Assembly: GCA_036567785.1 (NCBI GenBank)
Contig: DATCTV010000034.1
Coordinates: 102,468-166,467, forward strand
Direction: 5' to 3'
Source: Desulfomonilia bacterium
GTDB taxonomy: Bacteria > Desulfobacterota > Desulfomonilia > UBA1062
Length of the DNA: 64,000 nt
The translations under genes and the position numbers were made by a program. The notes beneath the pieces were generated by a model. The model had not been told where the DNA came from and did not search any database. It was given only the letters and a program-made list of their open reading frames with translations. Shown here piece after piece: positions 33,669-60,249 of the stretch; the first letter of the stretch is position 1; every line of letters starts with the position of its first letter.

Positions 33669-33725
33669 ATTTTTTTAAACAGCATTATAGTTTGTGAAAA
33701 AAAGATAAAGAAAGGAGACCTGCTT

Positions 33726-34148: not shown

Positions 34149-34167
34149 TACGTTTACTTGAACATCT

Positions 34168-43809: not shown

Positions 43810-43834
43810 AGAACCTGACGGGAGTTGGCAAACT

Positions 43835-45775
43835 ATGAGAATATTTATGCATGTTGGGTATGCCAAAATGTCCGGACTGGCCATATGCCTTTTCATGCTA
43901 ATAATCCTTATGCCCGGATGCAAATCTAAGCCAGAGGTGGCACCGGTCCTCAACGACCTGAACCTCAAGGCATACAGTTCACGTACCATAACGATCAGTC
44001 AGCCGAATTTTGCAACACCGGGCTATCCTTCACCGGCTGTAGAGGCATATATCGGGGCGACCGGGGCGATAACCGCTGAAGGGTCATCTGTTTCGGGGGC
44101 ATCCGAGGGACCGGTCGATGTGTCCAAAGACGGCTACCAATTCATGGGCCTCGCAACCGGCGCTTCCTATGACATCATCGTAATTGCAAAGAACAAGGCC
44201 GGCTTCTCGATCAAAAACCTTACAGGAGTGGTTCCGGCTGTGCCCAATGTAGATCCTGCCTCTTACCTTCAGATCGGGAATGACGAAATGGGTATGTTCA
44301 GATGGTATCTCACGATGTGTGACGATCCCCTGGACGACTTCTCCAAGATAGAATCCTGGGACAAGGACCAGTACTTCATCTCATCATACAGATACAGCAT
44401 TGCATTCATAACCTATATGCTCGCACTCGAGCAGTACCACAAGCTCAATGCCTGGCGCGAGTACATAAAACCCCGTATGGACAGGCTCATACAGAAGATG
44501 CTCATGAAGCAGGTATGGCAGTACTGGGCCATGAGAAGCAAAGGGGTCAGTTTTCTGGAGCCGTTATTGAATACGCCGTATCCAGAGGAACGCGATCCGG
44601 TAGGCCACAAGAACATCATGTACTCGGCCCACCTTGGTCAGATGATCGGGCTTTATGAGATGCTCTACAGGGACCTGAAATGGGACGAGCCCGGTTCCAT
44701 CGTGTTCAAGTGGAGCGAGACAGAGCAGTATGTCTATGACAATAACTCCCTGCAGAAGGTCATGTACGACCAGATGATGTACAACCAGCACCAGAGCATC
44801 GAATGCGAGCCTAATGCCGTCTTTTCCGAGTGTAACGAACACCCCATACTCTCCTTCATGCTGTACGACCATGTACACGGGACGAACCTTGCCGAGGCAC
44901 GCAAACGATTTCTGGACTTTTTCCTGGAGAAGAATTTCATCAACCCGATAACACACGAGACCGCCGTCCTCTATCTGGTCAAGCAGAAGACGATGATAAC
45001 CCAGGAGTTCTGCAGCTTCGGAAACGGCCTTTCCCTGGTATCCGTACCCATGGCCTGGCTGGGGCTGATAAATGCCAATGCCTCGATATCGAACGGATGG
45101 AACGGGGCCTTCATGCACGGCTGGGAACCTGCCCTTATTGAACGACATTATCCTTACCAGAAAAAGAGGCATGTGGTGGAGCCGGACAGCAATACCGCGC
45201 ACCTGAAGATAGAGATGATAACAGATCAGATAGCCACGCCGCTCTTCGCCATGCTGGCAGGTGAAGTGGGAGACACTGCCACAAGGGACAAACTCATAGC
45301 CTGGTGCAAGGACTTCTACAAACCGACATGGGACGACGGTATGCTGCATTACCCTGTCGGAAAAGACACATACGTCAACCTTCTAAGAATGGCATGGACG
45401 CCATGGCCCCAAGCCTTCACCGGCGTTCTTGTGGCATTCACGGCTGCCAATCCACCGAGCGGCATCTGGAAACTCCACAACAAGCCGTTCATCCAGCGAG
45501 ATTTCGAATCTCCGCAGGTGACGGAAGTCGACTTCCCCAATGTCCTGCTTACAAGGGCCGTCTACGACTTTGAAAAGGAGGCTCTTGTTATGTCCACAGT
45601 AGGCGGCGCACTCCATAGCGGCAGCACATCTTTCAATGTAACTCAGCTGGACAATAACAGGAAATGGAAGCTCTTCCTGGATGGGATTCTTCAGAATGAA
45701 TATATAGGGGTCCGTTCTGTTTCAATCAATGTTCCCCTTGATGCGCAGCATGATATTGTATTGGTTGCGGAATAG
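43835..45775 (+). CDS. Lipoprotein, FN3-like plus LDI-like domain, paralog 2
   Basis: Lipobox MPGC, same architecture. About 60% aa identity to paralog 1 and about 85% to paralog 3 by eye. Same Met-x3-His and Cys-x8-Cys motifs. Confidence 0.55.
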   Translation: MRIFMHVGYAKMSGLAICLFMLIILMPGCKSKPEVAPVLNDLNLKAYSSRTITISQPNFATPGYPSPAVEAYIGATGAITAEGSSVSGASEGPVDVSKDGYQFMGLATGASYDIIVIAKNKAGFSIKNLTGVVPAVPNVDPASYLQIGNDEMGMFRWYLTMCDDPLDDFSKIESWDKDQYFISSYRYSIAFITYMLALEQYHKLNAWREYIKPRMDRLIQKMLMKQVWQYWAMRSKGVSFLEPLLNTPYPEERDPVGHKNIMYSAHLGQMIGLYEMLYRDLKWDEPGSIVFKWSETEQYVYDNNSLQKVMYDQMMYNQHQSIECEPNAVFSECNEHPILSFMLYDHVHGTNLAEARKRFLDFFLEKNFINPITHETAVLYLVKQKTMITQEFCSFGNGLSLVSVPMAWLGLINANASISNGWNGAFMHGWEPALIERHYPYQKKRHVVEPDSNTAHLKIEMITDQIATPLFAMLAGEVGDTATRDKLIAWCKDFYKPTWDDGMLHYPVGKDTYVNLLRMAWTPWPQAFTGVLVAFTAANPPSGIWKLHNKPFIQRDFESPQVTEVDFPNVLLTRAVYDFEKEALVMSTVGGALHSGSTSFNVTQLDNNRKWKLFLDGILQNEYIGVRSVSINVPLDAQHDIVLVAE

Positions 45776-45829
45776 GACACACAAAAAATTATAGACAGAC
45801 GATTTCAGTCCAGACTTAGGAGGAAGGGT

Positions 45830-47752
45830 ATGCAAAAGAATTCCATGAAAACATTCAGCACCGTGATATGCCTTTTCCTGGCTGTTTTAATGATGCCGGG
45901 ATGCAAAAAGGCGGTTGCACCAGAGCTCAACGACCTGAGCCTCAAGACTTGCAGCGCGCGCTCAGCGACAATTGATAAGCCGAGTTTTGCCACACCGGGC
46001 GACCCGGAACCGATAGTGGAAGCTTACATCGGGGCAACCGGAACCATCTCAGTCGACGGATTATCTGTGTCAGGTGCTTTACAGGGGCCTGTTGACGTAT
46101 CCAAGGATGGCTGCCAGTTTACGGATCTTGTCAAAGGCTCTTCCTATGACATCATCGTCATTGCAAAGAACAAGGCCGGTTCCTCGATTAAAAGCCTTAC
46201 CGGAGTAGTTCCGGCAGTACCCACGGTGGATCCTGCCTCTTATCTCGAGATCGGGAATGACGAGATGGGCATGTTTAGATGGTACCTCTCAATGTGCGAC
46301 GATCCCCTGGATGATTTTTCGAAAATCGAATCCTGGGATCAGGATCAATTCTACATTTCATCATACCGCTACAGCATAGCGTTTACTACATACATGCTGG
46401 CTCTTCAGCAATATCACAAGCTCCCTGCCTGGCGCGAATACATAAAGCCCCGCATGGACAGGCTCATACAGAAGATGCTCCTGAAGCAGGTGTGGCAGTA
46501 CTGGGCCGTGCGCAGCAAGGGCGTTGATTTCATCGAACCTCTCCTGAACACGCCATATCCCGAAGAACACGATCCTGTAGGCCACAAGAACATCATGTAC
46601 TCAGGCCACCTGGGTCAGATGATAGGTCTCTACGAAATGCTTTACAGGGACATGAAATGGGACATGCCGGGTTCGATAGTCTTCAAATGGAGCGATACAG
46701 AAGAATATGTCTACAACAACTATTCCCTCCAGAAGGTGATGTACGACCAGATGATGTACAACCAGCACCAGAGCATCGAATGCGAGCCAAACGCTGTCTT
46801 CTCCGAGTGTAACGAACACCCGATACTCTCCTTCATGCTTTATGACCATGTTCACGGTACTAAGCTGGCAGAAGCCCGCAACAATTTCCTGGATTTCTTC
46901 CTTAAGAAAATGTTCGTAGATCCTCTTACGCATGAGACGGCCTTCTTCTATCTGGTCAAGCAGAAGACTATGATTACCCAGCAGTTCTGCAGCCTGGGCA
47001 ACGGACTTTCTCTTGTATCGGTTCCTCTTGCCTGGCTCGGGCTCGTTAATATAAATGCTTCGATATCGAACGGATGGAACGGCGTGTTCATGCACGGCTG
47101 GCAGCCGGACATAATAGAGCGCCATTACCCATATCAGAAAAAAAGGCATGTAGTTGAACCAGACAGCACCAGCGCCCACCTGAAGGTTGAGATGGTGACC
47201 GACCAGCTCGCCACACCCTTCTTCGCCATGCTGGCAGGTGAAGTAGGAGACACTGCCACGAGGGACAAACTCATAGCCTGGTGCAAAGACTTCTACAAGC
47301 CGACCCTGGATGACGACGGGATGCTGCATTACCCTGTGGGTCCGGACACCTATGTGAACCTTTCCAGGACGAAATGGTCAGAATTGCCGCAGGCCTTTAC
47401 GGGCGTGCTGATAACCTTCGCGGCTGTTAACCCGCCGAACGGAGTCTGGAAGCTTCACAACAGGCCGTTTACCCAACGCGACTTTGAGTCTCCGCAGATT
47501 ACGGGCCTGGACTACCCCAACATACTGCTGAAACGGGCGATATACGACTTTGAAAAGGAGGCCCTCATTGTATCTACCATGCCCGGAAAAGGCACTGGCA
47601 GCACGTCGATAAACATCACCCAGCTTGACCCTTCAAGGACATGGGACGTAATTGTTGATGGTGAGAATTTCTGTACTGTCAGCGGGACAAGTTCCACATC
47701 AGTTGATGTATCCATGGACGCAGGACATGACATTGTCCTGATAGCGGAATAA
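45830..47752 (+). CDS. Lipoprotein, FN3-like plus LDI-like domain, paralog 3
   Basis: Strong AGGAGG RBS, lipobox MPGC. Colinear with paralog 2. Confidence 0.55.
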   Translation: MQKNSMKTFSTVICLFLAVLMMPGCKKAVAPELNDLSLKTCSARSATIDKPSFATPGDPEPIVEAYIGATGTISVDGLSVSGALQGPVDVSKDGCQFTDLVKGSSYDIIVIAKNKAGSSIKSLTGVVPAVPTVDPASYLEIGNDEMGMFRWYLSMCDDPLDDFSKIESWDQDQFYISSYRYSIAFTTYMLALQQYHKLPAWREYIKPRMDRLIQKMLLKQVWQYWAVRSKGVDFIEPLLNTPYPEEHDPVGHKNIMYSGHLGQMIGLYEMLYRDMKWDMPGSIVFKWSDTEEYVYNNYSLQKVMYDQMMYNQHQSIECEPNAVFSECNEHPILSFMLYDHVHGTKLAEARNNFLDFFLKKMFVDPLTHETAFFYLVKQKTMITQQFCSLGNGLSLVSVPLAWLGLVNINASISNGWNGVFMHGWQPDIIERHYPYQKKRHVVEPDSTSAHLKVEMVTDQLATPFFAMLAGEVGDTATRDKLIAWCKDFYKPTLDDDGMLHYPVGPDTYVNLSRTKWSELPQAFTGVLITFAAVNPPNGVWKLHNRPFTQRDFESPQITGLDYPNILLKRAIYDFEKEALIVSTMPGKGTGSTSINITQLDPSRTWDVIVDGENFCTVSGTSSTSVDVSMDAGHDIVLIAE

Positions 47753-47762
47753 GGAGGTAAAA

Positions 47763-48185
47763 ATGAAGAAGTCTCAAATCTGGGCACTTGTAATTATTCT
47801 GCTGGGGGTGGTCGTCATACTTATCCCATGGCAGCTTTTCCCTGTCTGCGGAGTGGGTCGCTATGCACCGCCTGCCGGGGCTATGCCCCGGATGCACGGC
47901 TGTGACGGCACCCTTAAAGCCGCTACTTATCTGGGTATTATAACAATTTGCGCCGGGCTGCTGCCGCTATTTTTCAAACAGCACCTTGCCGGACTTATCT
48001 CGGCAGTTTCAACAGCAGTGATCGGCGTCCTTCTCATACTCTTCCCGACAGTCATAACAGGAGTCTGCAAGGTGCCGACAATGCCATGTGTCTTCGGGAC
48101 AAAACCTGCCCTCATAATGGCGGGTATAGTATTGATACTGGTGGCTGGCTCTTTCGGCATCATGCTGATGAAAAAGAAAAAGTAA
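47763..48185 (+). CDS. Small 4-TM integral membrane protein with conserved cysteines
   Basis: 140 aa with four hydrophobic helices and six Cys (CGVG, HGCDG, CAG, CKVPTMPC). 10 nt after paralog 3. Its stop overlaps the start of the permease gene (TAATG). Confidence 0.45.
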   Translation: MKKSQIWALVIILLGVVVILIPWQLFPVCGVGRYAPPAGAMPRMHGCDGTLKAATYLGIITICAGLLPLFFKQHLAGLISAVSTAVIGVLLILFPTVITGVCKVPTMPCVFGTKPALIMAGIVLILVAGSFGIMLMKKKK

Positions 48186-49393
48186 TGACAACGGCAAGCC
48201 TTGCCCTGGGCAATCTCATCAAACGCCCATGGCGAACCGCCATACTGGCGGTTTGCATCGCATGTCTTGTGGGAATGCAGATGGCGGCCACGATCATTGA
48301 ACGGGCCAGCAGACAGGGTCTCAAACTGGGTCTTGAGCGCCTCGGGGCCGACCTGGTGGCAGTCCCCCGTCAGCTTGACAGCGACCTGGTGCAGGCCTAC
48401 ATGACGGGAAAAGCAGCGGTCTTCTACATGCCGGCCACTATCGAACAGCGTATCCGTAATTTTGATTTCGTCAGACAGACATCCCCTCAGCTTTACATAG
48501 AATCTCTCTCAAATGCGACCTGCTGTTCAACATGGAATGTTTTCCTGATCGGATTTGACCCCAAGACCGACTTTACTGTCCGGCCCTGGCTGAGCAGACA
48601 CCGCGACATACAACTCGGCCCTTCAGACATCCTGGTCGGCGCTGCGCTACAGTCTCCGCCCGGAAAGACCTACAAATTTTATGGTCAGATATTCAATGTC
48701 GCGGGGTCGCTGGATGCAAGCGGTATGGGACTTGACTATTCCGTCTTCATCCCGATCGAGGGAGTCAAACGTATGATAGCCGAATCAGGGATAAAGGCAG
48801 TTAAACGGCTCGATATCGCCCCTGATCAGACATCTGCAATCATGATCAAGCTGAAGCCGGAGATATTCGGGGGGCTCCCTGCATGGAAGGCGGCCTATGA
48901 AATAGAGAGCCGGGTGCCGGAAGTCACTATCATCCAGCCCGCAGACATCACGGTAAAGGTTCAGAAAAATCTGGCCGCGACACTTAAGACCTTGACAATG
49001 GCCAGCTTCGCCATATGGCCCATGACAGTCCTTCTCGTCGGACTCGTGTTCATGATGGCAGTCAGGGAACGCCAGCGCGAGATAGGTCTCATGAGGGCAA
49101 TGGGCAGTACACGTCTGTTTATATTCCGCATGATACAACTTGAAGCATTAATGATCTCGGTTCTGGGAGCAGCTCTCGGACTGATCGTTTCAACGGGAAT
49201 AGTGATCGGTTTCGAGCGTATGATTGCACTTAGACTTGAAATCCCCTTTGCGGTGCCGGGAGTCTTTGAAATTCTTTTCATAGCAGGCCTTTCCTTTGGA
49301 CTCGCAGTTGTCACGGGAGTTCTGGCCGCAATGATCCCGGCACTTAAAGTAAGCGCCATGGAGCCTTACGAGGCCATCAGGAGGGCGGGATGA
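48185..49393 (+). CDS. ABC transporter permease, FtsX/MacB-like (type VII) with large periplasmic domain
   Basis: N-terminal TM, ~220-aa periplasmic domain, then three C-terminal TMs (FtsX-domain pattern …REIGLMRAMGST…). Start reassigned to the ATG at 48185. The track start at 47948 is out of context and overlaps the previous gene. Confidence 0.7.
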   Translation: MTTASLALGNLIKRPWRTAILAVCIACLVGMQMAATIIERASRQGLKLGLERLGADLVAVPRQLDSDLVQAYMTGKAAVFYMPATIEQRIRNFDFVRQTSPQLYIESLSNATCCSTWNVFLIGFDPKTDFTVRPWLSRHRDIQLGPSDILVGAALQSPPGKTYKFYGQIFNVAGSLDASGMGLDYSVFIPIEGVKRMIAESGIKAVKRLDIAPDQTSAIMIKLKPEIFGGLPAWKAAYEIESRVPEVTIIQPADITVKVQKNLAATLKTLTMASFAIWPMTVLLVGLVFMMAVRERQREIGLMRAMGSTRLFIFRMIQLEALMISVLGAALGLIVSTGIVIGFERMIALRLEIPFAVPGVFEILFIAGLSFGLAVVTGVLAAMIPALKVSAMEPYEAIRRAG

Positions 49394-50076
49394 TAATCCT
49401 TAACGGGGTCTCAAAACTCTATGGTTCCGGAGGCGGTGAAATCCGTGCCGTGGATGACGTTTCTCTTGAGGTTAAAGAAGGCGAGTTCCTTGTTCTCATC
49501 GGCCATTCCGGAAGCGGTAAAACCACACTCCTTAACCTCATAGCCGGTATGACGCGTCCGGACACGGGACGAATAGAAATAGCCGGACGGGATATTCTCG
49601 GCATGAGTGATGCCGAAACGGCACATATGAGGGCTTCGGTCATCGGTTTTGTCTTTCAGTTCCAGAGCATGATTTCAACGCTCAATGCACTGGATAATGT
49701 CAGGCTCCCGTCGCTCTTCCGCAGACACAGATCAGAGAAGAAAGAGGCATTCGAAATGCTTGACCGGGTCGGTCTGGCCGGCAGGGAACATGCATATGCA
49801 CACGAGCTTTCACTTGGTCAGCAGCGCCGTGTCGGTATTGCACGGGCCCTGTTCAGCAGGCCTTCGCTGCTGCTCTGCGATGAACCGACAGGAGACCTCG
49901 ACCCTGAAACAGAACTGGCGATCATGGGTTTGATCTCAGGGGCGAACAGGGACGGTGCTACCATTGTCATGGCCACGCATAACCATGACCTCTGCTCTTA
50001 TGCAAACCGTATCCTGTGCATGGACCACGGCCGGATTTCCTCGGTTGAGCCCGGGACAGAACATGCGATTAAATAA
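49390..50076 (+). CDS. ABC transporter ATP-binding protein (LolD/MacB-type)
   Basis: Walker A GHSGSGKTT, signature LSLGQQRRV, Walker B LLLCDEPT, 228 aa. ATGA overlap with the permease gene. Confidence 0.9.
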   Translation: MIILNGVSKLYGSGGGEIRAVDDVSLEVKEGEFLVLIGHSGSGKTTLLNLIAGMTRPDTGRIEIAGRDILGMSDAETAHMRASVIGFVFQFQSMISTLNALDNVRLPSLFRRHRSEKKEAFEMLDRVGLAGREHAYAHELSLGQQRRVGIARALFSRPSLLLCDEPTGDLDPETELAIMGLISGANRDGATIVMATHNHDLCSYANRILCMDHGRISSVEPGTEHAIK

Positions 50077-50227
50077 CAGGTAATCCCTCTTCTGTTTCAG
50101 AAAAACCGCCGGGTACAAAATGATTGAAGAATTATCAGGTACTGCCGATAGATATTTTAGCGCACTTAATTAATAAATATTAAAAACCGGGCGATTCATG
50201 CTCTATTCGCGCAAACAAGGAGCCCTT

Positions 50228-50524
50228 ATGAAAATTAACAAAACGACGGCCGGAGTCAGCATGACCATCGAACTCGAAGGCAGGCTGGACAGCGTAACGG
50301 CGCCGCAGCTCGAAGCCGAATTGAAATGCTCTCTTGACGGCATAACGGAACTGGCGCTTGATTTCTCGGCGCTCGATTATCTTTCATCAGCAGGACTGCG
50401 TGTAATTCTTGCCGCACAGAAGGTCATGAACAAAAAAGGGTGCATGCAGATCAGAAATGTCAACAAAACGATCATGAATGTGTTTGAGATCACGGGGTTT
50501 ACTGATCTCCTGACAATCACCTAG
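50228..50524 (+). CDS. STAS-domain anti-sigma-factor antagonist (SpoIIAA/RsbV-like)
   Basis: 98 aa with the conserved phosphorylatable Ser in the DFSALDYLSSAGLRVIL context. AAGGAG RBS upstream of the ATG at 50228. Confidence 0.8.
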   Translation: MKINKTTAGVSMTIELEGRLDSVTAPQLEAELKCSLDGITELALDFSALDYLSSAGLRVILAAQKVMNKKGCMQIRNVNKTIMNVFEITGFTDLLTIT

Positions 50525-50649
50525 CTGAAGTATCTCGAAAAATGCGCCTGGCAGTATCCGGGCTTATTATAAAACAGATCGTTCCTCTGGACAAATGTTG
50601 AACACAACATGACGCCAATCCTAAAACATCATCTTCAATCAACAGCCTG

Positions 50650-52584
50650 TTAAGTCCCTTCTTTTCGGTATTTCAAGGCAAGCATGGTAATATCATCCGA
50701 TTGTGATGCGCCATTGGTGTGCAGTGTTACAACCGAGCGTATGTAATGGATCATTTCTGTAACATCCTCTTTAGGTGCCTGTTTAAGCGCATTTAAAAGG
50801 CGCTCCTCGCCGTATAGTTCCTGTTCCATGTTTTGCGCTTCCGTCACTCCGTCGGTATAGAGAAAAAGTGTGTCTCCGGCTTTAAGGGTAAGCCGTTCGG
50901 CTTTATAGACAATACCCGGCATGGGGCCCAGCACAAAACCGGGTTTCAGGGTAAGGTATCTTATCCCCTGAGAATCCATGATTACCGGGGCATTATGCCC
51001 GGCATTGGCAAACCGTACGACTCCTGTAACAGTATCAAGAATGGCGCAGAATACTGTAGCGAACATGGTGCTGTCATTGTCCGAGGCAAGAATGTTATTC
51101 ACGCATGAAAGTATCTGATCGGGCTCGCCAAGCCGCTGACCCTCGGATTTAAGGAGGGTCTTTGCCACCATCATGTAAAGGGCCGCCGGCACACCTTTAT
51201 CCGAAACGTCTGCAATTAGGAAGCAGAGATTGGTATCGTCGATGAAAAAGAAATCGTAGAAGTCTCCACCTACTTCCTTGGCGGGATCCATCGAGGCGTA
51301 AATGTCAAATTCGGGACGATCCGGAAATGCCGGGAACAGACGTGGAAGCAGACTGGCCTGTATTTCGGTTGCCATCCTGAGTTCGCTCTGTATACGTTCC
51401 TTTGCCGCAGTGGTTTCGGTCAGGTTCTTTATGTATTCCTTGAGTGACGTTTTCATTACCTGAAAGTCATGCGTGAGCACGCCGACTTCATCCTTAGATC
51501 TGACCGCAGGCAATTCCACATCGAAGTTACCCGAAGCTATATCATCCGTCGCAGCCGCCAGCAGACGGAGAGGTTTTATGATAGCGCTGGCAACATAGAC
51601 GACAGTCGCAACCAGAAGCAGGAGCCCTGCAAAACCCATGGCCGCCATGGTCATGCTCAGACACCTGACATTTTCAAGAAGCTCCGCCTCTGGAAATACA
51701 ACGGCAAGCGTCCAGCCTGTAGAACGGACCGGCGCGTAATACATCCAGCTCCTGAATCCCATAAGGCTGTTGTAGAGAATGAAACCAGACTCTCCGCTGA
51801 CCATCTTTTTGCCGAGTTCGCGCAGTGAAGCATCATTGCGCGCCTCGGCTATGCTGAAGAATGTCTCATTCATGACGGCATCCTTCAAGGGGTGTGCGAG
51901 CAGCATCCCGTTTCGTGAAAGAAGGGCTGCATACCCTGACTTCAGTATCTTGACGGATGAGATCATTTGCGTAAGCGAGTCCAGCGAGACATCCGCCGTC
52001 ACTATTCCTTTGAGTATTCTTGTCCCGTTCTTTTCACCGTAAAATGGAACCGAACATGTTGACATGACGGTATTGCCTGCCCCCTCGTCGAAATACGGCT
52101 CGCTCCATTCGGTTTTGCCCAGTTCCCTCGGGATCTGGTACCAGTCCCAGTATAGATACGGTACGTATTGATATGAGTCTTCCAGGCGGCTGAAGGCAAT
52201 TTTTCCTTTATCCCGGTAGAAGTAGGGAGCAAAAAGACGGATTGAGGGGCTGAAGGCATAGGGCTCAAATGCCACTGTTGAACCGTATATATCCGGATTC
52301 TTTTCAACTGTGGTTCTGATAAGCGAAAGGAGTTCCTTCTCCGTGTACTGACCGGACTCAAGTGAATTAGCCACACCTTCGGTCACTTTGGCAACCCCGA
52401 TAAGCTCGGTTTCAACATGATAGACTAAAGACATGGCAAGGTTGCGCGCATTGGCTTCAAGCTCGTTCTCTAGAACGACGCGGGAGCGGTAATAGTTGTA
52501 GCCGAGAGTTACGGCAAAGATGAGCGTGCTGCATAGCGTGATAACAAGGACAAGCTTGGTGACGATACTATTTTTCCCCGGCAT
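50650..52584 (-). CDS. Sensor PP2C phosphatase: TM, periplasmic Cache-like domain, TM, HAMP, SpoIIE/RsbU PP2C domain
   Basis: Two TMs bracketing a ~280-aa periplasmic domain, a HAMP region (…ATDDIASGNFDVELP…), and C-terminal PP2C motifs (GDFYDF, ADVSDKG, DGVTEA). Confidence 0.8.
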   Translation of the reverse strand: MPGKNSIVTKLVLVITLCSTLIFAVTLGYNYYRSRVVLENELEANARNLAMSLVYHVETELIGVAKVTEGVANSLESGQYTEKELLSLIRTTVEKNPDIYGSTVAFEPYAFSPSIRLFAPYFYRDKGKIAFSRLEDSYQYVPYLYWDWYQIPRELGKTEWSEPYFDEGAGNTVMSTCSVPFYGEKNGTRILKGIVTADVSLDSLTQMISSVKILKSGYAALLSRNGMLLAHPLKDAVMNETFFSIAEARNDASLRELGKKMVSGESGFILYNSLMGFRSWMYYAPVRSTGWTLAVVFPEAELLENVRCLSMTMAAMGFAGLLLLVATVVYVASAIIKPLRLLAAATDDIASGNFDVELPAVRSKDEVGVLTHDFQVMKTSLKEYIKNLTETTAAKERIQSELRMATEIQASLLPRLFPAFPDRPEFDIYASMDPAKEVGGDFYDFFFIDDTNLCFLIADVSDKGVPAALYMMVAKTLLKSEGQRLGEPDQILSCVNNILASDNDSTMFATVFCAILDTVTGVVRFANAGHNAPVIMDSQGIRYLTLKPGFVLGPMPGIVYKAERLTLKAGDTLFLYTDGVTEAQNMEQELYGEERLLNALKQAPKEDVTEMIHYIRSVVTLHTNGASQSDDITMLALKYRKEGT

Positions 52585-53590
52585 CTGACCTCCGGCTGAA
52601 AGCGTCGTAGTAGGGGCAACTCCGGATCAGGCCTGCCTTGAGAAGTGAACTGCAAACCGCCTCATAATCTTTTTCTTTGAGAATGCCAGGAGCACCCAGG
52701 GATGTGCCTGGCATGATCATATCCCGCATCCGGTCAAGCATCCATTTCTGATGAATCCGGTTGGCGGGTATTTTTGCCTCGCGCATGCGTCTGATGACTA
52801 TGTCCAGAGCCTCTTCGGGATGCTCAAAGGCATAGCGCCAGCCATCCAGAGATGCTTTTACAAAGGCCCCGGCCAGTGCAGGGTCATTATGCAGGGTTTT
52901 TTCCATCGCATATATGCCGTCCTCCGGGAAATTCATCCCCAGCTCATTCATGGAAAAAACGTTCAGTTCTTCAGGATCGAGTCCGGAATTGATGATAGTG
53001 TGGTACTCGTTGTACCACATTGCGGATGTGACATCGATCCCGCCTCGAAGGAAGAGGTTCACGGTGGCGTTCTGGGGCACCTCACGTACTTTGATGCCGT
53101 ATTTAATAAACAGGGCATGCGGAGGTATGGACAAGTCTCCTCCCCACAGTCCCACCTTTTTGCCGTTCATATCAGAGACAGTCCGAATGCCGCTTGATTT
53201 TCTTGAAATCAGCATCATGGAAGATCTCTGTATGATCTGAGCCAGATTGACAAGATCTGTACCGGCAGACCGCTGTTGAATTGCAGTCGTAAGCCACAGA
53301 ATAGCGAAGTCGGCAGAACCGTCCTTCAATGCCCTTACAGGGTCATGACCAGGACCTGCATTGAGAATTTTAAGATCTATGCCATAACGGGCATATATCC
53401 CTTTGTCCAACGCGACATAATATCCGGCAAACTGCGCCTGTGGAGTCCAGAGCGGCATGAGGGTAGCCTTTTTCAGAACGGGTTCGGAGACGGCCCATGT
53501 CGAAAGGGGCAACATCAGAAACAACAGCAATGCAAAAATCAATTTCAATAAATTTTGTTCAGTATATTTTTTTTTGTGCATCATAATCAT
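52568..53590 (-). CDS. Periplasmic substrate-binding protein, NMT1/SsuA/TauA-like
   Basis: Signal peptide followed by a type-2 periplasmic-binding fold typical of nitrate/sulfonate/bicarbonate ABC SBPs. Overlaps the downstream phosphatase gene by 17 nt. Confidence 0.65.
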   Translation of the reverse strand: MIMMHKKKYTEQNLLKLIFALLLFLMLPLSTWAVSEPVLKKATLMPLWTPQAQFAGYYVALDKGIYARYGIDLKILNAGPGHDPVRALKDGSADFAILWLTTAIQQRSAGTDLVNLAQIIQRSSMMLISRKSSGIRTVSDMNGKKVGLWGGDLSIPPHALFIKYGIKVREVPQNATVNLFLRGGIDVTSAMWYNEYHTIINSGLDPEELNVFSMNELGMNFPEDGIYAMEKTLHNDPALAGAFVKASLDGWRYAFEHPEEALDIVIRRMREAKIPANRIHQKWMLDRMRDMIMPGTSLGAPGILKEKDYEAVCSSLLKAGLIRSCPYYDAFSRRSDAGEK

Positions 53591-53684: not shown

Positions 53685-54764
53685 ATGAAGATAGGACTGA
53701 TTGGACTGGCAAAGGCGGGAAAGACAACCGTGTTCAATGCAATTACACGCTCGGATGCAGAGACGGGGGCGTTCACATCGGGTAAGCCCGAACCCAACAT
53801 CTCGGTAGTGGAAGTGGCTGATGCACGGGTTGACAGTCTGAGCGCAATGTTCAAACCCAAGAAGACCACCCATGCAACCATCGAATTTATGGACTTCGTC
53901 GGCATTGCCAGGGATGAAGACAAGAAGCAGTCTTTTACGGCGAGCGAACTCGGCCTTATTAAAACCTCAGATGCACTTGCCATCGTGCTCAGAAATTTTG
54001 CAAATGAGATGCTTGATGCATCCATAGGCACCCATGATCCAGCGAGAGATCTGGAAAACGTTATTTCGGACATGGTGCTTTCCGACCTTATCATCGCAGA
54101 GACAAGAATTGAACGCATTGACGCCCAGTGCAAAAAAGGCGGCAAAACCCCTGCCCTTGATCTTGAAAGGGCTACGCTGGTAAAGATTGTTTCTTATCTT
54201 AATAATGACAAAAGGCCTGACCCTGAAGCTTTCACCGCCGAAGAGCTTAAATCGATCAGGGGTTTTCAGTTTCTGACGCTCAAGCCTACTCTCATAATCC
54301 TGAATTCAGATGACATGTCCTACGGCAAGAACGATAAAATCCTCACCGGACTAAACAGTATATTCCCGGCGATAGAATATGCAGGGGAATTCGAGATGGA
54401 GCTCTGCCGCCTGAGCGCCGAAGAGGCGCAGCTCTTCATGGATGATATGGGCATTAAATCCTCCGCCAGAGACCGGCTTACCCAGATGGCTTATGACATT
54501 CTGGGTTTGATAACTTTTTTCACGGTAGGTCCGGACGAAGTAAGGGCATGGACCATAAACAAGGGCGAGACGGCTTTGGAGGCAGCAGGCACTATACACT
54601 CCGACCTTGCCAGAGGCTTCATAAGGGCAGAATGTTTTACCTATGACGAGATAATGGCGCACGGGTCTGAAAAGCACCTCAAGGAAAAAGGGCTTGTGAG
54701 ACTAGAGGGCAAGACCTATGTCGTCAAAGACGGCGATATCCTGAACATAAGGTTCAGTGTTTAG
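53685..54764 (+). CDS. ychF: YchF/OLA1-family P-loop NTPase (divergent paralog)
   Basis: P-loop GLAKAGKTT. C-terminal TGS-like domain nearly colinear with E. coli YchF (VRAWTI…AAGxIHxDxxxGFIRA…GKxYxVKDGDxxNxxF). The G1 and G4 motifs diverge from canonical YchF. Confidence 0.7.
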   Translation: MKIGLIGLAKAGKTTVFNAITRSDAETGAFTSGKPEPNISVVEVADARVDSLSAMFKPKKTTHATIEFMDFVGIARDEDKKQSFTASELGLIKTSDALAIVLRNFANEMLDASIGTHDPARDLENVISDMVLSDLIIAETRIERIDAQCKKGGKTPALDLERATLVKIVSYLNNDKRPDPEAFTAEELKSIRGFQFLTLKPTLIILNSDDMSYGKNDKILTGLNSIFPAIEYAGEFEMELCRLSAEEAQLFMDDMGIKSSARDRLTQMAYDILGLITFFTVGPDEVRAWTINKGETALEAAGTIHSDLARGFIRAECFTYDEIMAHGSEKHLKEKGLVRLEGKTYVVKDGDILNIRFSV

Positions 54765-54778
54765 AATCAGGGGAATAC

Positions 54779-55936
54779 ATGTCCAGGGTTTCGATAATTG
54801 AAGTTCGCAGGTATGACAGCGGTCTTATCAAGCAAGCCATGTTTAAGGCCCTTGATGAGATCGGATTCGACCTTTCCAGCCTGAAGGGTAAAAGGGTAGC
54901 TGTAAAACCCAACCTTCTGTCTGCAAGCAAGCCTGAGCAGGCGATTATAACCCATCCTGAATTTTTCCGGGCGGCTGTACAGATAATCAAAGGTGCAGGC
55001 GCGTTCCCGGTCCTCATCGAATCCCCGGCAATCCATTCGCTTTCAAGGGTATTTCGCGTTTCTGGTTATGACAGGGTCATCGAAGAAGAAGGCATCGAGG
55101 TGGACCTCGAGCAGGCAGGCATGACAATCACCAACAATAACGGCCGCAGATACAAGAATTTCGAGATCATGAAAAGCGTGACCGGTGCGGATTTCATCTT
55201 CAACCTGCCCAAGTTCAAGACACACGGCCTCACATACATCACCGGCGCACAAAAAAATCTTTTCGGGCTGATACCCGGTATGGCCAAAACCCAGTGGCAT
55301 TTCAAGGCCAATGAAAGGGAAATATTCTGCGAGTTTCTGGCGGATTATTTCGAGGCGGTGAGCATGCTTTTCAAATCTCCCAAGGGTATCATACATGTGA
55401 TGGATGCGATCACAGGCATGGAGGGAAACGGTCCCGGCTCGGGAGGAAAACCCAGGGAAATAGGCGCCGTTATCGTATCGGAAGACGCCATTGCCGCCGA
55501 TTTCATTGCAACAAGCCTTGTCGGATTCGATCCGAGGTTTGTTAAAACCATGTCCTTTGCCTCAGAGCGCGGCCTCGGCAAAAAAGGGTTTAATGAAATA
55601 GATTTCGACCGGAACGCCTTCGACAGGCTGAAGCTCGACAAGTTCGAGCCGGCGCCAATGCCCTTCAACGTCAGGCTGGAAAAAATTAAATGGCTGAACA
55701 ATCTGCTTAAGAGGCTTATGGTTGAAAGGCCGGTGCCGATAGAGGGCAAATGCACCCTGTGTTATCAGTGCAGGCAGATCTGCCCGGCAAAGGCCATTGA
55801 TAAGGGTGACACGGTCGCCATCTTCAACTATGAAAAATGCATACGCTGCTTCTGCTGCATAGAAGTCTGCCCCGAAGCGGCGATTAGAATCAAGGGTAAT
55901 TTCCTGAGCAGAATATTCAACCCGAAAAAAGGTTAA
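54779..55936 (+). CDS. DUF362-domain protein with C-terminal 2x[4Fe-4S] ferredoxin domain
   Basis: C-terminus CTLCYQCRQICP…CIRCFCCIEVCP gives two CxxCxxCxxxCP motifs. The N-terminal ~300 aa match the DUF362 pattern as I recall it. Confidence 0.6.
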   Translation: MSRVSIIEVRRYDSGLIKQAMFKALDEIGFDLSSLKGKRVAVKPNLLSASKPEQAIITHPEFFRAAVQIIKGAGAFPVLIESPAIHSLSRVFRVSGYDRVIEEEGIEVDLEQAGMTITNNNGRRYKNFEIMKSVTGADFIFNLPKFKTHGLTYITGAQKNLFGLIPGMAKTQWHFKANEREIFCEFLADYFEAVSMLFKSPKGIIHVMDAITGMEGNGPGSGGKPREIGAVIVSEDAIAADFIATSLVGFDPRFVKTMSFASERGLGKKGFNEIDFDRNAFDRLKLDKFEPAPMPFNVRLEKIKWLNNLLKRLMVERPVPIEGKCTLCYQCRQICPAKAIDKGDTVAIFNYEKCIRCFCCIEVCPEAAIRIKGNFLSRIFNPKKG

Positions 55937-56018
55937 ACAATTGACTTTTTAGATATATGCATATTTACTGATTTATCAGTGCGCTATACTCTCTTGAAAT
56001 ACTGAAACGGAGGTTACA

Positions 56019-57482
56019 ATGAAGCCAGGCAGACTGGAGTTCCTGAGTGAATCCGAAATTAAAAAGATCGATGCGCTATCCTTGGACATCCTCGAAAACA
56101 CCGGCATCAAGGTCGAACTTAAAAAACTGAGAGGAATCCTTCGCGATATAGGATGCACGGTTGATGAAACTAAAAAAATCGTTAAATTCCGTCCAGATAT
56201 CGTTCAGGCATTTGTTAAGAAGGCACCAAGGGAGTATATCCTTTGCGGAGCGGATCCGTCAAAACGCTGGCCCGTCAATCCGGACACAAGAGTTTTCGGG
56301 GGACTGGGCACAGCCGTGAACATGTACGATCTTTACTCGGGGGAATACCGTCAGGCGACCCTGCAGGATGTCGTCAACCACATCATCCTTTTCGACGGCC
56401 TTGAGCATATCGTCTCCAGCCAGATGGACATCTGGCCGGGTGACATCCCGATGCAGACAATCCACGTTGAGGCCATGCGGGCCTGGGCCAGGCACAGCAC
56501 CAAGTCATTCGGAATGGGTGCCTACGGCGTCATGCCCACGCAAGACATGATGGAAATGACGTCATTGATAATGGGTGGAAGGGAAAACTTTAAAAAACAG
56601 CACCCCTTCATCGCCATCGTGAGCATTCAAAGCCCTCTTTCCTCGGTACAGATACAGCTCGAGGGGCTTATGGTACTTGCGGAATGGGGTCAGCCCGCTC
56701 TCATGTCGCCGGAGGCCATGGCCGGCACAACAGCTCCTGTAACGATTGCGGGGCTTCTCGCCCAGCACAACGCGGAAATACTTGCGTATATCGTTATGGC
56801 CCAGGCAGTCAATCCAGGTACACCGGTCATGTACGGAACGGTTTCGACCATTGCCGAGATGCGGCGCGGAACCGTAGCATTAGGCGCGATTGAAATGGGC
56901 CTCATCAGCGCCGCCTCTGCACAGATGGCACATTATTACGGAGTTCCCTGCAGGGCCGCAGCGGGCGGCACCGAGGCCAAGACCTTGGACATGCAGTGCG
57001 GCATAGAGCGCGAGCGCTCGATGATGCTTGCTGCCCTCGGCGGTGCAAACTATATCACCAGTGTCGGCACCATCGAATCCACCACGGCAGGCGCGCATGA
57101 ACTGGCGGTAATCGACAACGAAATCATCGGACAGATCGAGAGGGCGCTGCGAGGCATCGAGGTGGGCGACATCACCATGGCGGCCGAGGTCATCAAGGCC
57201 GTGGGCCCTGACGGAAACTACCTCATGCAAGACCATACACAGAAAAACTTCAGGCGCGAACATTATATTCCGAAACTGGCGGATAGAGACAAACGCGATG
57301 TATGGGAACGAGGCGGAAGCAGAGAAATGATTAATAACGCCAGAGAAGAAGCCAAAAAGATCATCGCCACACATAAAGAGCGGCAGCTGGACCCGAAGCT
57401 TTTAATGGAGATTGACGCCTATGTGGATTCTGTGAAGGCGAGAAGCCTGGAAGATTTTTATGCGGCTGAATGGGAAAGCTGA
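56019..57482 (+). CDS. MttB-superfamily methyltransferase, non-pyrrolysine type (glycine betaine / quaternary amine:corrinoid methyltransferase-like)
   Basis: 487-aa TIM-barrel MttB-family pattern. Continuous ORF with no in-frame TAG, so it is the non-Pyl class (MtgB/MtpB/MtcB-like). GGAGG RBS. Confidence 0.8.
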   Translation: MKPGRLEFLSESEIKKIDALSLDILENTGIKVELKKLRGILRDIGCTVDETKKIVKFRPDIVQAFVKKAPREYILCGADPSKRWPVNPDTRVFGGLGTAVNMYDLYSGEYRQATLQDVVNHIILFDGLEHIVSSQMDIWPGDIPMQTIHVEAMRAWARHSTKSFGMGAYGVMPTQDMMEMTSLIMGGRENFKKQHPFIAIVSIQSPLSSVQIQLEGLMVLAEWGQPALMSPEAMAGTTAPVTIAGLLAQHNAEILAYIVMAQAVNPGTPVMYGTVSTIAEMRRGTVALGAIEMGLISAASAQMAHYYGVPCRAAAGGTEAKTLDMQCGIERERSMMLAALGGANYITSVGTIESTTAGAHELAVIDNEIIGQIERALRGIEVGDITMAAEVIKAVGPDGNYLMQDHTQKNFRREHYIPKLADRDKRDVWERGGSREMINNAREEAKKIIATHKERQLDPKLLMEIDAYVDSVKARSLEDFYAAEWES

Positions 57483-57502
57483 ATAGATAAGGGAGGCATG
57501 TC

Positions 57503-58144
57503 ATGGGAGAGACTACGTTAAAAGAACTTGAAGATGCGATCGTACAGATGGATGCCGATATCACGGAGGGGCTTGCCATAAAGCTTCTCGATTCAGGCAC
57601 AGAAGCTCAGGTAATATTAAAAGAGGCGCTTCTTCCGGCACTTGACCGGGTTGGAACACTCTTCAGGGACGGGGATTATTTTCTCCCGGACGTGCTCATG
57701 TGCGTAAAGGCCTATGACAATTCGTTCAAGATAATCCTGCCAAAGCTCAAGGAAGGCGATTATACCTCGCGCGGCAGGGTGATTCTGGGAACCGTGGAAG
57801 GCGATATCCACGAGATCGGCAAGAATATTCTTTTCGCGCTTCTTGAGGGTAACGGCTTCGATGTGCTGGATATGGGCGTAAATGTCAAGGCGGACGACTT
57901 TCTTGCAAAGGCAAAGGAGTGGTCTCCGGACATCATCGGCATGTCGTCGCTGCTTTCCACGACCATGCCCGCAATGAAACAGGTCATCGACACCTTCACA
58001 AAAGAAGGGCTCAGGAATAACTATAAATTCATCATCGGCGGTGCGCCGGTAAGCCAGCGGTTTGCCGATGAGATAGGTGCAGACGGTTATGGGGAAGATG
58101 CACAATCCGGAGTGGAGCTGGTAAAGCGGCTGCTCGCATCCTGA
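57503..58144 (+). CDS. Corrinoid (cobalamin-binding) protein of methyltransferase systems
   Basis: N-terminal helical cap plus B12-binding Rossmann domain with the DxHxxG motif (GDIHEIGKN). 213 aa. 20 nt after the mttB-like gene. Confidence 0.85.
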   Translation: MGETTLKELEDAIVQMDADITEGLAIKLLDSGTEAQVILKEALLPALDRVGTLFRDGDYFLPDVLMCVKAYDNSFKIILPKLKEGDYTSRGRVILGTVEGDIHEIGKNILFALLEGNGFDVLDMGVNVKADDFLAKAKEWSPDIIGMSSLLSTTMPAMKQVIDTFTKEGLRNNYKFIIGGAPVSQRFADEIGADGYGEDAQSGVELVKRLLAS

Positions 58145-58164
58145 CAAAAAGTCCGGGAGAAGAC

Positions 58165-59511
58165 ATGACCGACAGGCATGCAGTTCAAGAGTTCATGCCG
58201 GTAACTCTGAAGGAAATCATCCTCTACAATCTGGCAGGCTTTGCCTTCAACGTGTACGATACCGTGCTTTACGCATGGCTTCCGTACTTCTATACTCCGC
58301 CGAAAGATTCTTCGGCGATTCATTATATACCGTTGGCCGCCATAGGGATAATACTGGCAGGCGGCAGGATCCTCGATGCCTTCAATGACCCGCTTGTGGG
58401 TTACTGGAGTGATCACACCAAATCCCGCTGGGGGAGAAGAAAGCCTTACATCTTCATTGCAAACCCCTTTCTCTTTCTCACTTTCATCCTGGTATGGATG
58501 CCCCCAGTGCGAGGAGAAAGCATAACGAATGTAATCTTTCTAGCTGCAGTTCTTTTCTTTTACTACTGGGCCTATACGGGGGTGCTCATTCCCTGGTTTG
58601 CCGTTCTGCCCGAAATAAGCAGGAAGAATGAAGACAGGGTGAAGATTGCATCGATAGGTGTCGCCATCGGCGTAATCGGGGCACTTCTGGGCGGTGGCCT
58701 CTCCGGTCCGCTCTTCTCCAAATACGGGCCATTCATGATGGGGCTTTTACTCGGCATTCCGGCATTCATAGCCGGCGAACTCACCCTATTCGGCATCAAG
58801 GAGCGCCATTCACCGCCCCCCGAAGAGGACATGCCCGGTTTTTTCAAGGTCATGAAAGAGGTTTTCGGAGATAAGCAGTTCCTTTCCTTCGCCGGAATGA
58901 TAATGATGGTTCAGCTTACCTATCAGCTAATGCTTATGAATGTGCCCTATCTGACTACCCTTATCCTCGGCAAAAAGGAAGCGGATGCGTCTCTGATCAT
59001 GGCTGAGGTGATCATAATGATCGCGGCTTCGTCACCGCTGTGGTATCTCCTTCTTAAAAAGTATTCGAAGAAAAATATCTTCCGCATTATCATAATCCTT
59101 ATGATCTTGGGCTTTTCACTTAGTTTCTTCATCGGCAGGCTGCCCTTCTTCTCGCCACTGGTCCAGGCCATGCTGATATTCCCCATTGCCGCAATTCCCA
59201 TAGGCGGCATGTTTACGGCTTCGCTCGGCATTATTGCAGATCTCACGGATTACGATGAACTCAAGAGCGGCAGGCGCAGGGAGGCTATATATTACGGCCT
59301 CTACGGGATAGTCAGAAAGACCGGCTGGGCGCTATGCTCTCTTATCCTTGTGGGGATATTTTCCTTTTTCGGCTACAGCAAAGAGAATCCTCTAGGCATA
59401 CGTGTGGTCTGGATCGTCTGCTCGATTTCCTGCCTCATAGGGCTTCTCGCATTCATCCCTTACAAGATAGGCGACAGCAAGGAAGAGACAAAACGCATCA
59501 TGGGGCTGTGA
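58165..59511 (+). CDS. MFS transporter (GPH/cation-symporter-like)
   Basis: 448 aa, 12 predicted TMs, MFS loop motif region (…GYWSDHTKSRWGRRKP…). Confidence 0.75.
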   Translation: MTDRHAVQEFMPVTLKEIILYNLAGFAFNVYDTVLYAWLPYFYTPPKDSSAIHYIPLAAIGIILAGGRILDAFNDPLVGYWSDHTKSRWGRRKPYIFIANPFLFLTFILVWMPPVRGESITNVIFLAAVLFFYYWAYTGVLIPWFAVLPEISRKNEDRVKIASIGVAIGVIGALLGGGLSGPLFSKYGPFMMGLLLGIPAFIAGELTLFGIKERHSPPPEEDMPGFFKVMKEVFGDKQFLSFAGMIMMVQLTYQLMLMNVPYLTTLILGKKEADASLIMAEVIIMIAASSPLWYLLLKKYSKKNIFRIIIILMILGFSLSFFIGRLPFFSPLVQAMLIFPIAAIPIGGMFTASLGIIADLTDYDELKSGRRREAIYYGLYGIVRKTGWALCSLILVGIFSFFGYSKENPLGIRVVWIVCSISCLIGLLAFIPYKIGDSKEETKRIMGL

Positions 59512-59544
59512 TTCAGGATTTTTGGGGCCCTGTTGAAATTGCGG

Positions 59545-60249
59545 TCATGAAAGATTTTGCAGGTTGAATTTTTTCCCCACATGCGAAAGGTGTGCGATCA
59601 TGGCCTTTCGTGCCCCATCGGGATCATGCGCCTTCAGCGCCGCCACAATCTCCCTGTGGTCATCAACAGCCTGTCTGCGGACTTCCATGTCGTCGCCGGT
59701 TCTCCGCCTGCTGTAGATGCTGATCCTGTCTATTGAATGCATGAACGCCTGAATGATCCTGTTTCCTGCAACTTCCATAATACGCCTGTGCAGATCAATA
59801 TCATATGCCATGAATGTTTCCGGGTCATCGATTACCTTGAGGGCCTCGTCAAGGCACTTCTCGATTTCATGTATTTCGTCGTCGGAGATATTCTCCGCCG
59901 CAAGGGCCACCATCCCGGCTTCCAGTATCGTTCTTGCCTGAAGGAGATTCGCGTAGGTGGAATCGTCGAGTGCGAATTCGATGTCAAGGTGCTCTACAAG
60001 CTTTTCGGGAGTAAGAGACGAAACAAACGTCCCCGAGCCCTGGCGGTTTTCTATTATGTTCATGAGCTTAAGGGCATTGAGGGCCTCTCTCAGCGAGGGC
60101 CTGCTGACGTTCAGAATCGATGACAGTTCCCTTTCCGGAGGGAGTTTGTCACCTCTCTTGAGGCCCTTTTCCCTTATAAGCGAAAGGATTCTCTGCGCAA
60201 GATTATCAGGCTGGATTTCTTTAAAAGCGGTACTTTTTTTTACTTTCAC
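59545..60249 (-). CDS. GntR-family transcriptional regulator with FCD (FadR C-terminal) domain
   Basis: N-terminal wHTH (…GDKLPPERELSSILNVSRPSLREAL…) and a C-terminal all-helical FCD domain. Confidence 0.85.
   Translation of the reverse strand: MKVKKSTAFKEIQPDNLAQRILSLIREKGLKRGDKLPPERELSSILNVSRPSLREALNALKLMNIIENRQGSGTFVSSLTPEKLVEHLDIEFALDDSTYANLLQARTILEAGMVALAAENISDDEIHEIEKCLDEALKVIDDPETFMAYDIDLHRRIMEVAGNRIIQAFMHSIDRISIYSRRRTGDDMEVRRQAVDDHREIVAALKAHDPDGARKAMIAHLSHVGKKFNLQNLS

Follow-up and report, generated by a model that had tools for sequence, protein, structure and literature searches.

Partner-switching modules are a major signalling device of bacteria, of which the input and the output are mostly unknown. 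Among described inputs, Chlamydia RsbU is a membrane protein with a periplasmic Cache-like sensor domain, and the RsbQ-RsbP energy-stress input of Bacillus subtilis pairs, within one operon of two genes, an accessory protein that binds small molecules (RsbQ, an alpha/beta hydrolase of the cytoplasm) with RsbP, a PP2C phosphatase that has a PAS sensor domain and acts on a STAS protein. We describe here a locus of a Desulfomonilia bacterium (positions 50228-53590 of a 64-kb stretch of contig DATCTV010000034.1, hereafter the window), in which the open reading frames (ORFs) delineate a plus-strand STAS gene convergent with a minus-strand pair encoding a solute-binding protein (SBP) and a dCache-HAMP-PP2C phosphatase.

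SiaABCD, composed of the membrane HAMP-PP2C phosphatase SiaA, the kinase SiaB, the switch protein SiaC and the diguanylate cyclase SiaD, is a partner switch with a non-sigma output (PMC7647112). The SBP-stimulated receptors compiled in a 2021 review comprise chemoreceptors, histidine kinases, GGDEF/EAL proteins and one Ser/Thr-kinase system, and the review groups AioX, a Phosphonate-bd SBP, with NMT1 among the periplasmic-binding-protein families (PMC8050422). It names no phosphatase and no NMT1-family SBP, and no description of SBP-coupled PP2C signalling was found in the literature searched; what an earlier note on this DNA had called poorly characterised thus proved to be undescribed. The novel element of the locus is the obligate-looking SBP partner of an RsbU/SpoIIE-kind phosphatase.

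With moderate confidence, the locus is read here as the input side of a partner switch that relies on a conserved sensor cassette of two genes, in which the SBP would gate the PP2C phosphatase, the phosphatase would dephosphorylate the STAS protein, and the output would lie outside the window. The proposal of the earlier note, that SBP and Cache sensor feed a PP2C/STAS switch, remained the best reading of the comparative data.

An SBP-PP2C cassette conserved across phyla

Homologues of the phosphatase were numerous (7167 clusters at E <= 1e-20). A genome scan with one genome per species returned at least 562 phosphatase relatives, of which the best 80 (L001-L080, L numbers designating homologous loci or contigs compared with the window) were analysed; their phosphatases were 43-90% identical to that of the window. 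An NMT1 SBP homologue was found directly 5' of the PP2C gene in 68 of the 75 loci with at least 1 kb of upstream sequence, and in one additional locus beside a frameshifted phosphatase. Of the 52 loci in which the overlap between the SBP stop and the PP2C start was measurable, 51 had one of 11, 14 or 17 nt. In the window, the overlap sequence ATGCCGGGGAAAAATAG runs from the PP2C ATG through the SBP TAG, the PP2C start being located inside the last SBP codons. Gene order and overlap were kept in nearly all loci, across more than 10 phyla, and the two genes apparently constitute a conserved, translationally coupled cassette.

According to record titles, cassette carriers included Geobacteraceae, Trichlorobacter, Methylococcaceae (Methylobacter, Methylovulum, Methylomicrobium) and Chlorobiaceae, as well as Nitrosomonas, Nitrotoga, Desulfobulbales, Syntrophaceae, Rhodothermales, Nitrospirae, Omnitrophota, Aminicenantes, WOR-3 and Planctomycetia. 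Mutual identities between Chlorobiaceae, Methylococcaceae, Geobacteraceae, Nitrosomonas/Nitrotoga and Rhodothermales metagenome-assembled genomes were 70-80% for PP2C and 60-76% for SBP. Such cross-phylum identity is far above the expectation for vertical descent, and horizontal transfer among bacteria of fresh water and sediment seems to have spread the cassette. SBP divergence tracked that of the periplasmic domain slightly better than that of the cytoplasmic part of the phosphatase (partial r of 0.54 and 0.41, respectively), a weak signal confounded by shared history.

The cassette was usually accompanied by the remaining components of a partner switch. Among the 43 well-flanked loci (at least 5 kb upstream and 7 kb downstream), STAS genes were present in 35, HATPase_c_2 kinase genes in 32 and both in 31, while STAS occurred without kinase in four and neither was found in seven. 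These companions were a STAS protein of about 111 aa and a HATPase_c_2 protein of about 140-165 aa (Pfam E 1e-27 to 3e-30), which NCBIfam relates to RsbW. Recurrent layouts were STAS>kinase>SBP>PP2C, SBP>PP2C>STAS>kinase, and SBP>PP2C followed by a permease fused to four SBP_bac_3 domains, a GlnQ-like ATPase, STAS and kinase. Only PP2C, SBP, STAS, kinase, ABC ATPase and the SBP_bac_3-permease fusion formed clusters present in at least 10 of the 80 loci. No sigma-factor gene stood out as conserved in the 80 loci as judged by neighbour clustering, no direct search for sigma factors having been made.

No RsbW-type kinase was detected in the 64 kb of the window, neither by tblastn with 36 kinases of the family nor with a six-frame profile hidden Markov model (scattered matches, best E >= 0.01). 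Pfam revealed no sigma factor and no HATPase_c_2 domain in the large non-overlapping window ORFs (a few short ORFs and a 561-aa ABC-type ORF at 24406-26091 were left out), nor any further PP2C or STAS gene in the large ORFs. PADLOC gave no defence-system matches for the module. Since STAS and kinase are both present in most well-flanked loci, the window represents a kinase-less variant of a normally complete module. The description of the module as an orphan, given in the earlier note, therefore applies to the window lineage and does not apply to the family. The other structural statements of that note agreed with our results: the ORF positions placed a STAS gene convergent with a two-gene minus-strand unit, Pfam returned the expected domains (STAS; dCache, HAMP and SpoIIE; NMT1), the 17-nt overlap was read directly, and kinase and sigma factor were missing from the window by the searches above.

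Architecture of the sensor phosphatase

Two transmembrane (TM) segments predicted from hydropathy flank the Cache domain, so that the phosphatase is arranged as TM1 (aa 7-25), periplasmic dCache, TM2 (aa 318-336), HAMP, a conserved linker helix and PP2C. The Cache region matched Pfam MCP-like_PDC_1 (E 4.6e-28) and dCache_1 (E 3.6e-18), and the HAMP domain was assigned with an E of 3.6e-12. The SpoIIE match (E 2.9e-50) was full-length, covering profile positions 1-191 of 192. Sequence matches in the PDB comprised dCache sensor domains (3lic, E 4e-21), the HAMP domain of Af1503 and PP2C domains.

The PP2C motifs GDFYD (440), DVSDKG (459), TDGVTEA (577) and DDIT (630) were largely kept in at least 90% of 68 homologues, with all Asp and Gly residues retained. 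Over the same homologues, mean identity was 61% in the periplasmic Cache domain, 63% in the catalytic domain and highest, at 83%, in the HAMP-PP2C linker. The equal conservation of sensor and catalytic domains, like the weak co-divergence signal, is indirect evidence for a physical contact of SBP and sensor domain.

Orthology with SiaA was considered and rejected: the NCBIfam equivalog NF038263 scored 88.8 bits for a cut-off of 700 and aligned with aa 298-638 only, i.e., the HAMP-PP2C part, and no SiaB-, SiaC- or SiaD-like genes were adjacent.

A binding protein without transporter

The SBP matched Pfam NMT1 (E 9e-41) and begins with a signal-peptide-like segment in the hydropathy profile (hydrophobic aa 17-35, ...STWA/VSEP). 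Its nearest solved relatives were 4nmy, a thiamin-bound SBP, and 3ix1 (ThiY). The AlphaFold2 model (mean predicted local distance difference test score, pLDDT, 76.8) reached a TM-score of about 0.7 to both structures, its second lobe being of low confidence. Fold matches were ThiY (formylaminopyrimidine, FAMP) and the thiamin SBP, then THI5, TauA, SsuA and PqqT, all just 12-21% identical. Because of these low identities and of the low-confidence second lobe, no ligand was assignable from the model and the fold search.

No NitT/TauT-type permease or ATPase gene lies beside the SBP gene in the window, and none was conserved as a neighbour in the 80 loci. The score of the SBP against the SsuA-family model TIGR01728 was 42.1 bits, far under the cut-off of 163.5. 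Because of both observations, the SBP behaves like the "signalling-protein-associated" SBPs of the 2021 review (PMC8050422), unlike a transport SBP. It is conceivable that it is instead an ordinary transport SBP, for example for a sulfonate or for a precursor of thiamine or pyrimidine, which happens to be encoded in one operon with a phosphatase whose Cache domain senses its own ligand. The NMT1 fold, the transport function of its closest solved relatives (ThiY and the thiamin-binding SBP) and the common direct binding of small ligands by dCache domains (PMC8050422) fit this explanation. It is nonetheless unlikely, given the missing transporter genes, the low SsuA-family score, the absence of TPP (thiamine pyrophosphate) or any other riboswitch upstream in the Rfam search, which was of interest for a ThiY-like SBP, and an SBP-PP2C order kept with its 11-17-nt overlap in nearly all loci of more than 10 phyla.

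Divergent from the SBP gene, positions 53685-60249 encode YchF, a DUF362/4Fe-4S protein, an uninterrupted MttB-superfamily methyltransferase (487 aa), a corrinoid (B12-binding) protein, an MFS_2 transporter and a GntR/FCD regulator. These genes suggest a quaternary-amine demethylation cluster, which is syntenic in L031, L088 and L090. Any link between this cluster and the ligand of the SBP is pure speculation.

The STAS protein and its persistence beside the phosphatase

The longest STAS ORF starts at 50198, and the ATG at 50228, which follows AAGGAG, gives the 98-aa length of the homologues. The product was assigned to STAS by Pfam (E 1.4e-11) and to TIGR00377 by NCBIfam (61.9 bits, cut-off 53.45). 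Its predicted phospho-acceptor, Ser54 in DYLSSAGLRV, aligns with Ser58 of SpoIIAA and Ser56 of RsbV. The segment DYLSSAGLRVILAAQK was invariant among the relatives compared. Ratios of nonsynonymous to synonymous divergence (dN/dS) in six relatives ranged from 0.05 to 0.22 at dS up to about 0.8, including comparisons between genomes that all lack the fusion gene described below; judged by these ratios, STAS is under purifying selection.

Six contigs closely related to the window displayed the same convergence of STAS and PP2C genes, at synonymous divergence up to about 0.8. L090, with a 100% identical phosphatase, is arranged as Ldi-DUF4418-FtsX-ABC>STAS> <PP2C<SBP, and L088 and L089 (PP2C 91%) share this arrangement. 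L101 (89%) differs by a DctP gene between ABC and STAS. In L031 (90%), the block at window positions 41719-50123 is replaced by 594 nt. In L100 (89%), an 856-aa gene precisely fills the interval from the STAS stop to the PP2C stop, which corresponds to 70 nt (50528-50597) of the window. The neighbour upstream of STAS thus varied between an ABC ATPase, DctP, a remnant of an insertion sequence (IS) and another gene.

Despite differing upstream genes, nucleotide homology with L031 and L100 stopped at the same window point, 50123/50124. Because homology ends there whichever gene lies upstream, STAS and its leader of about 104 nt behave as a unit, which remains beside the phosphatase whatever its other neighbour. 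No promoter was demonstrated upstream of STAS in promoter and terminator scans, and the folds of both intergenic regions were no better than those of shuffled sequences (z = -0.8 for the gap carrying the hairpin of Table 1). Given the presence of STAS in 35 of the 43 well-flanked loci and the juxtaposition kept in six related contigs, the adjacency of STAS and PP2C is, by this comparison of gene order, not due to chance.

The window STAS is not an orthologue of the STAS genes of the PP2C-cassette family, to which it is 33-43% identical. Its identity is 64-73% to thousands of STAS proteins that are 98 aa long (P0129-P0240 compared) and come mostly from Clostridia and gut metagenomes. The higher identity to these Clostridia-type proteins than to the usual family STAS (at most 43%) suggests that the native STAS-kinase pair was replaced, possibly by horizontal transfer.

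The 856-aa gene of L100 (9570-12140, minus strand, 2.75 kb) encodes MatE, HATPase_c_2-like and HD-CE domains. Its HATPase_c_2-like part was recognised by a dedicated profile (E 7.5e-8), and scored 22 bits in Pfam for a threshold of 27.4. Since this fusion occupies the place of 70 nt in the window, and since no kinase or RsbW-like domain is found in the window or in five of the six related contigs, the locus could be a decaying remnant, whose STAS partner (a native STAS-kinase pair, or a MatE/RsbW-like/HD fusion) was lost and whose STAS protein no longer signals. We regard this as very unlikely: STAS, PP2C and SBP are intact ORFs with conserved motifs, and the low dN/dS of STAS extends to pairs of fusion-less genomes. 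Partner-switch components are, besides, often encoded at separate loci, as in Rsb systems.

Relation to the LDI/ABC operon

The earlier note had proposed that the module could regulate the LDI-like/ABC operon located directly upstream of STAS. This operon occupies 8.4 kb (41719-50123) and encodes three LDI-like paralogues, DUF4418, an FtsX permease and an ABC ATPase; the block is an indel relative to the closest genome record, L031, in which the replacing 594 nt (12446-13039) resemble, by eye, an IS4-like transposase fragment. No target-site duplications were found at the edges of the 8.4-kb block, where chance 7-9-mers alone occurred. The window ATPase is a plain 228-aa protein of LolD/MacB type, without RsbW-like extension, and its identity of about 35% to the GlnQ-like ATPases of other loci corresponds to generic ABC similarity.

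Synteny did not support the proposed regulation, the STAS/PP2C/SBP unit persisting without the operon next to it in L031 and beside other upstream neighbours in L100 and L101. Five distant metagenome Ldi/DUF4418/FtsX/ABC operons (FtsX 35-60% identical) contained no STAS, PP2C, SBP or kinase gene in their 3-8 kb flanks. STAS as a member of the LDI/ABC operon was rejected on the synteny of L031, L100, L101 and these five operons, and, on the same comparisons, the LDI/ABC operon is not the conserved target.

It is quite unlikely, for the same reasons, that STAS works with the upstream ABC transporter (DUF4418-FtsX-ABC ATPase and LDI-like proteins) as MlaB does with MlaF, the proximity of the phosphatase being incidental or the phosphatase regulating the transporter via STAS. 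The conserved STAS-ABC pairing expected of a MlaB-like relationship was not seen: L031 and L100 lack it, L101 has DctP in between, and the five distant operons are likewise without it; L031, in particular, keeps STAS, the 104 nt upstream of it, PP2C and SBP. The ATPase, with its generic similarity and without RsbW-like extension, offers no support either. Such a relationship would nevertheless account for the location of STAS 151 nt 3' of the ABC ATPase gene, on the same strand and with no convincing terminator between, for the ABC-then-STAS order in L088, L089 and L090 (and in L101 with DctP interposed), and for partner-switch genes of this type often flanking ABC importers throughout the family; regulation of an ABC ATPase by a STAS protein has a precedent in MlaB-MlaF (PMC7367683).

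On the minus strand, the region abutting the LDI/ABC block (32300-41672) encodes a 1037-aa MMPL-like/methyltransferase fusion, a GT2 glycosyltransferase, a lipid A-type acyltransferase, a polysaccharide deacetylase, an SDR (short-chain dehydrogenase/reductase), a LolA-like protein and ApeI/ApeP-like dehydratases. The region is reminiscent of clusters for the biosynthesis and export of aryl polyenes or lipids.

Proposed pathway and its output

In the pathway favoured here, the secreted NMT1/ThiY-like SBP would bind a small molecule in the periplasm and, in its liganded or free form, would dock on the double-Cache domain of the phosphatase, in the manner of LuxP-LuxQ, HptA-HptS and NspS-MbaA. 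The signal would be relayed via TM2, HAMP and the very conserved linker helix to the PP2C domain, which would strip the phosphate from Ser54 of the adjacent STAS protein. Unphosphorylated STAS would then bind an RsbW-like (HATPase_c_2) domain, kinase and target being presumably encoded outside the 64-kb window.

Most relatives of the cassette have the RsbW-like domain as a separate Ser kinase, whose gene is adjacent; in the case of the 98-aa STAS subfamily, the domain is often fused to a transporter or to a phosphatase. Genes of this subfamily were found as HATPase_c_2>STAS (L085-87), between an SBP_bac_3-permease-ABC ATPase fusion and a glyoxalase gene followed by a SpoIIE-HATPase_c_2 fusion (L081-84), and upstream of a MatE-HATPase_c_2 fusion and a SpoIIE-HATPase_c_2 fusion (L091-93). 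Because the subfamily is tied to transporter-fused RsbW-like domains and no conserved sigma gene was apparent, a transporter or an enzyme with an RsbW-like domain is considered a likelier output than a sigma factor would be; of all steps of the pathway, this one is the least secure. Hints in the same direction came from the L100 fusion, which fills the gap between STAS and PP2C, and from Clostridial relatives of the 98-aa STAS, located in clusters with MatE- and ABC-transporter fusions.

Several transporter associations were observed in other loci. GlnQ-like ABC ATPases of 363 aa were encoded between PP2C and STAS in at least 16 loci (L002, L009, L011, L017, L021-L025, L028-L030, L032, L036, L037, L050 and others; e.g., L023:14999-16102). 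Their C-terminal extension of about 120 aa was homologous to HATPase_c_2/RsbW kinases (hhalign 95%, E 2.5e-8), and their partner permease, of about 1000 aa, was the one fused to four SBP_bac_3 domains. Because the N-box Asn is replaced in the extension, it may be a pseudokinase docking domain for STAS. MATE transporter-HATPase_c_2 fusions directly followed the 98-aa STAS in L100 (9570-12140, minus strand), with HD-CE added, and in L091 (6370-8139, plus strand); no description of MATE- or transporter-fused RsbW-like domains was found in the literature searched. In L047 (4109-8170, minus strand) and L052 (12010-17031, plus strand), a 405-aa protein with an N-terminal STAS domain and a C-terminal part of 300 aa without domain assignment was encoded beside the cassette, then a BPD_transp_2 permease fused to three ABC_sub_bind domains and an ABC ATPase.

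The GlnQ-like extension, the pairing of STAS and permease in L047 and L052, and the MatE fusions suggest that the partner switches of this group act on transporters. A broader generalisation, possible but doubtful at this stage, is that the cassette defines a class of SBP-gated sensor phosphatases whose switch would control membrane transporters post-translationally, via STAS docking on RsbW-like (pseudo)kinase domains fused to or encoded beside transporter subunits, with the target of the window module located elsewhere.

Several observations weigh against the pathway favoured here. A kinase for STAS is seen neither in the window nor in any of the six contigs close to it, so that phosphorylation of STAS is assumed. 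The RsbW-like domain of L100 is sub-threshold in Pfam and appears to be without N-box Asn; the MatE-fusion domain may bind STAS, but phosphorylation of STAS by this domain is unlikely. As to the origin of the MatE fusion, gain in L100 would be more parsimonious, over the seven related contigs, than loss from the window. The Ldi-DUF4418-FtsX-ABC operon is found upstream of STAS, on the same strand, in five of the seven relatives (window counted), and in four of these five the ABC ATPase is the immediate neighbour of STAS, with no clear terminator between. Finally, the SBP-Cache contact is deduced from gene coupling alone, and the Cache domain might bind the ligand itself.

Table 1 Features of the STAS-phosphatase-SBP locus, in window positions
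Feature	Positions	Strand	Basis or remark
Conserved 5' region of the STAS gene	50123-50227	+	Probably own promoter and 5' untranslated region; AAGGAG ribosome-binding site at 50217-50222
STAS protein, single-domain, anti-sigma-factor-antagonist type, 98 aa	50228-50524	+	Pfam STAS
Terminator-like hairpin, then T-rich tail, in the 125-nt convergent gap	50546-50563	+	Consensus scan; weak feature
Transmembrane sensor phosphatase, 644 aa	50650-52584	-	Pfam, hydropathy, motifs, PDB sequence matches
PP2C (SpoIIE-type) catalytic domain, aa 449-639	50668-51240	-	Pfam SpoIIE
HAMP domain, aa 331-382	51439-51594	-	Pfam HAMP; PDB matches
Periplasmic double-Cache sensor domain, about aa 37-309	51658-52476	-	Pfam MCP-like_PDC_1, dCache_1
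SBP/PP2C gene overlap, 17 nt	52568-52584	-	Read directly
NMT1/ThiY-like SBP, predicted secreted, 340 aa	52568-53590	-	Pfam NMT1, hydropathy

Significance and comparison with known systems

The module of the window is real, maintained by selection and locally incomplete, and its regulatory link to the LDI/ABC operon is unsupported by synteny. The cassette is highly conserved and occurs widely, in many phyla of bacteria from anaerobic sediment and fresh water, among them methanotrophs, Geobacteraceae, green sulfur bacteria and nitrifiers. It offers a tractable input for partner switching, namely a binding protein that is soluble, secreted and amenable to ligand screening. If the proposed pathway is true, protein phosphatases would join the receptor classes stimulated by SBPs; if RsbW-like domains fused to MatE and ABC transporters are indeed its targets, partner switching would extend to the direct control of transport.

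Compared with the RsbU/RsbV/RsbW and SpoIIE/SpoIIAA/SpoIIAB modules of Bacillus, the locus shares a SpoIIE/RsbU-family PP2C phosphatase beside a single-domain STAS protein with a phospho-Ser position, and relatives of the cassette also carry the RsbW-like HATPase_c_2 kinase. It differs from these modules in that kinase and sigma factor are missing from the window, the phosphatase is coupled to a secreted SBP, and the STAS subfamily is tied to transporter-fused RsbW-like domains. In contrast to RsbQ-RsbP, the locus combines a periplasmic accessory protein with a dCache sensor domain. SiaA of Pseudomonas aeruginosa has a comparable phosphatase architecture, with an N-terminal membrane sensor region, HAMP and PP2C, whereas the switch protein of the window is a classical STAS without siaBCD neighbours; we know of no SBP partner of SiaA.

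The locus resembles MlaB-MlaF in that the gene of a small STAS protein comes directly after that of an ABC ATPase. The transporter, however, is of FtsX/MacB-LolD type and not MlaFE, and the adjacency is not conserved; to our knowledge, MlaB is not controlled by phosphorylation. A parallel for the sensory half is found in the SBP-stimulated receptors (LuxP-LuxQ, HptA-HptS, NspS-MbaA, ChvE-VirA, AioX-AioS and GlnH-GlnX/PknG), in which the SBP gene likewise stands beside receptor genes rather than transporter genes, and a dCache or dCache-like extracytoplasmic domain is placed between two TM helices. The locus differs from these receptors in its output domain, which is a PP2C phosphatase.

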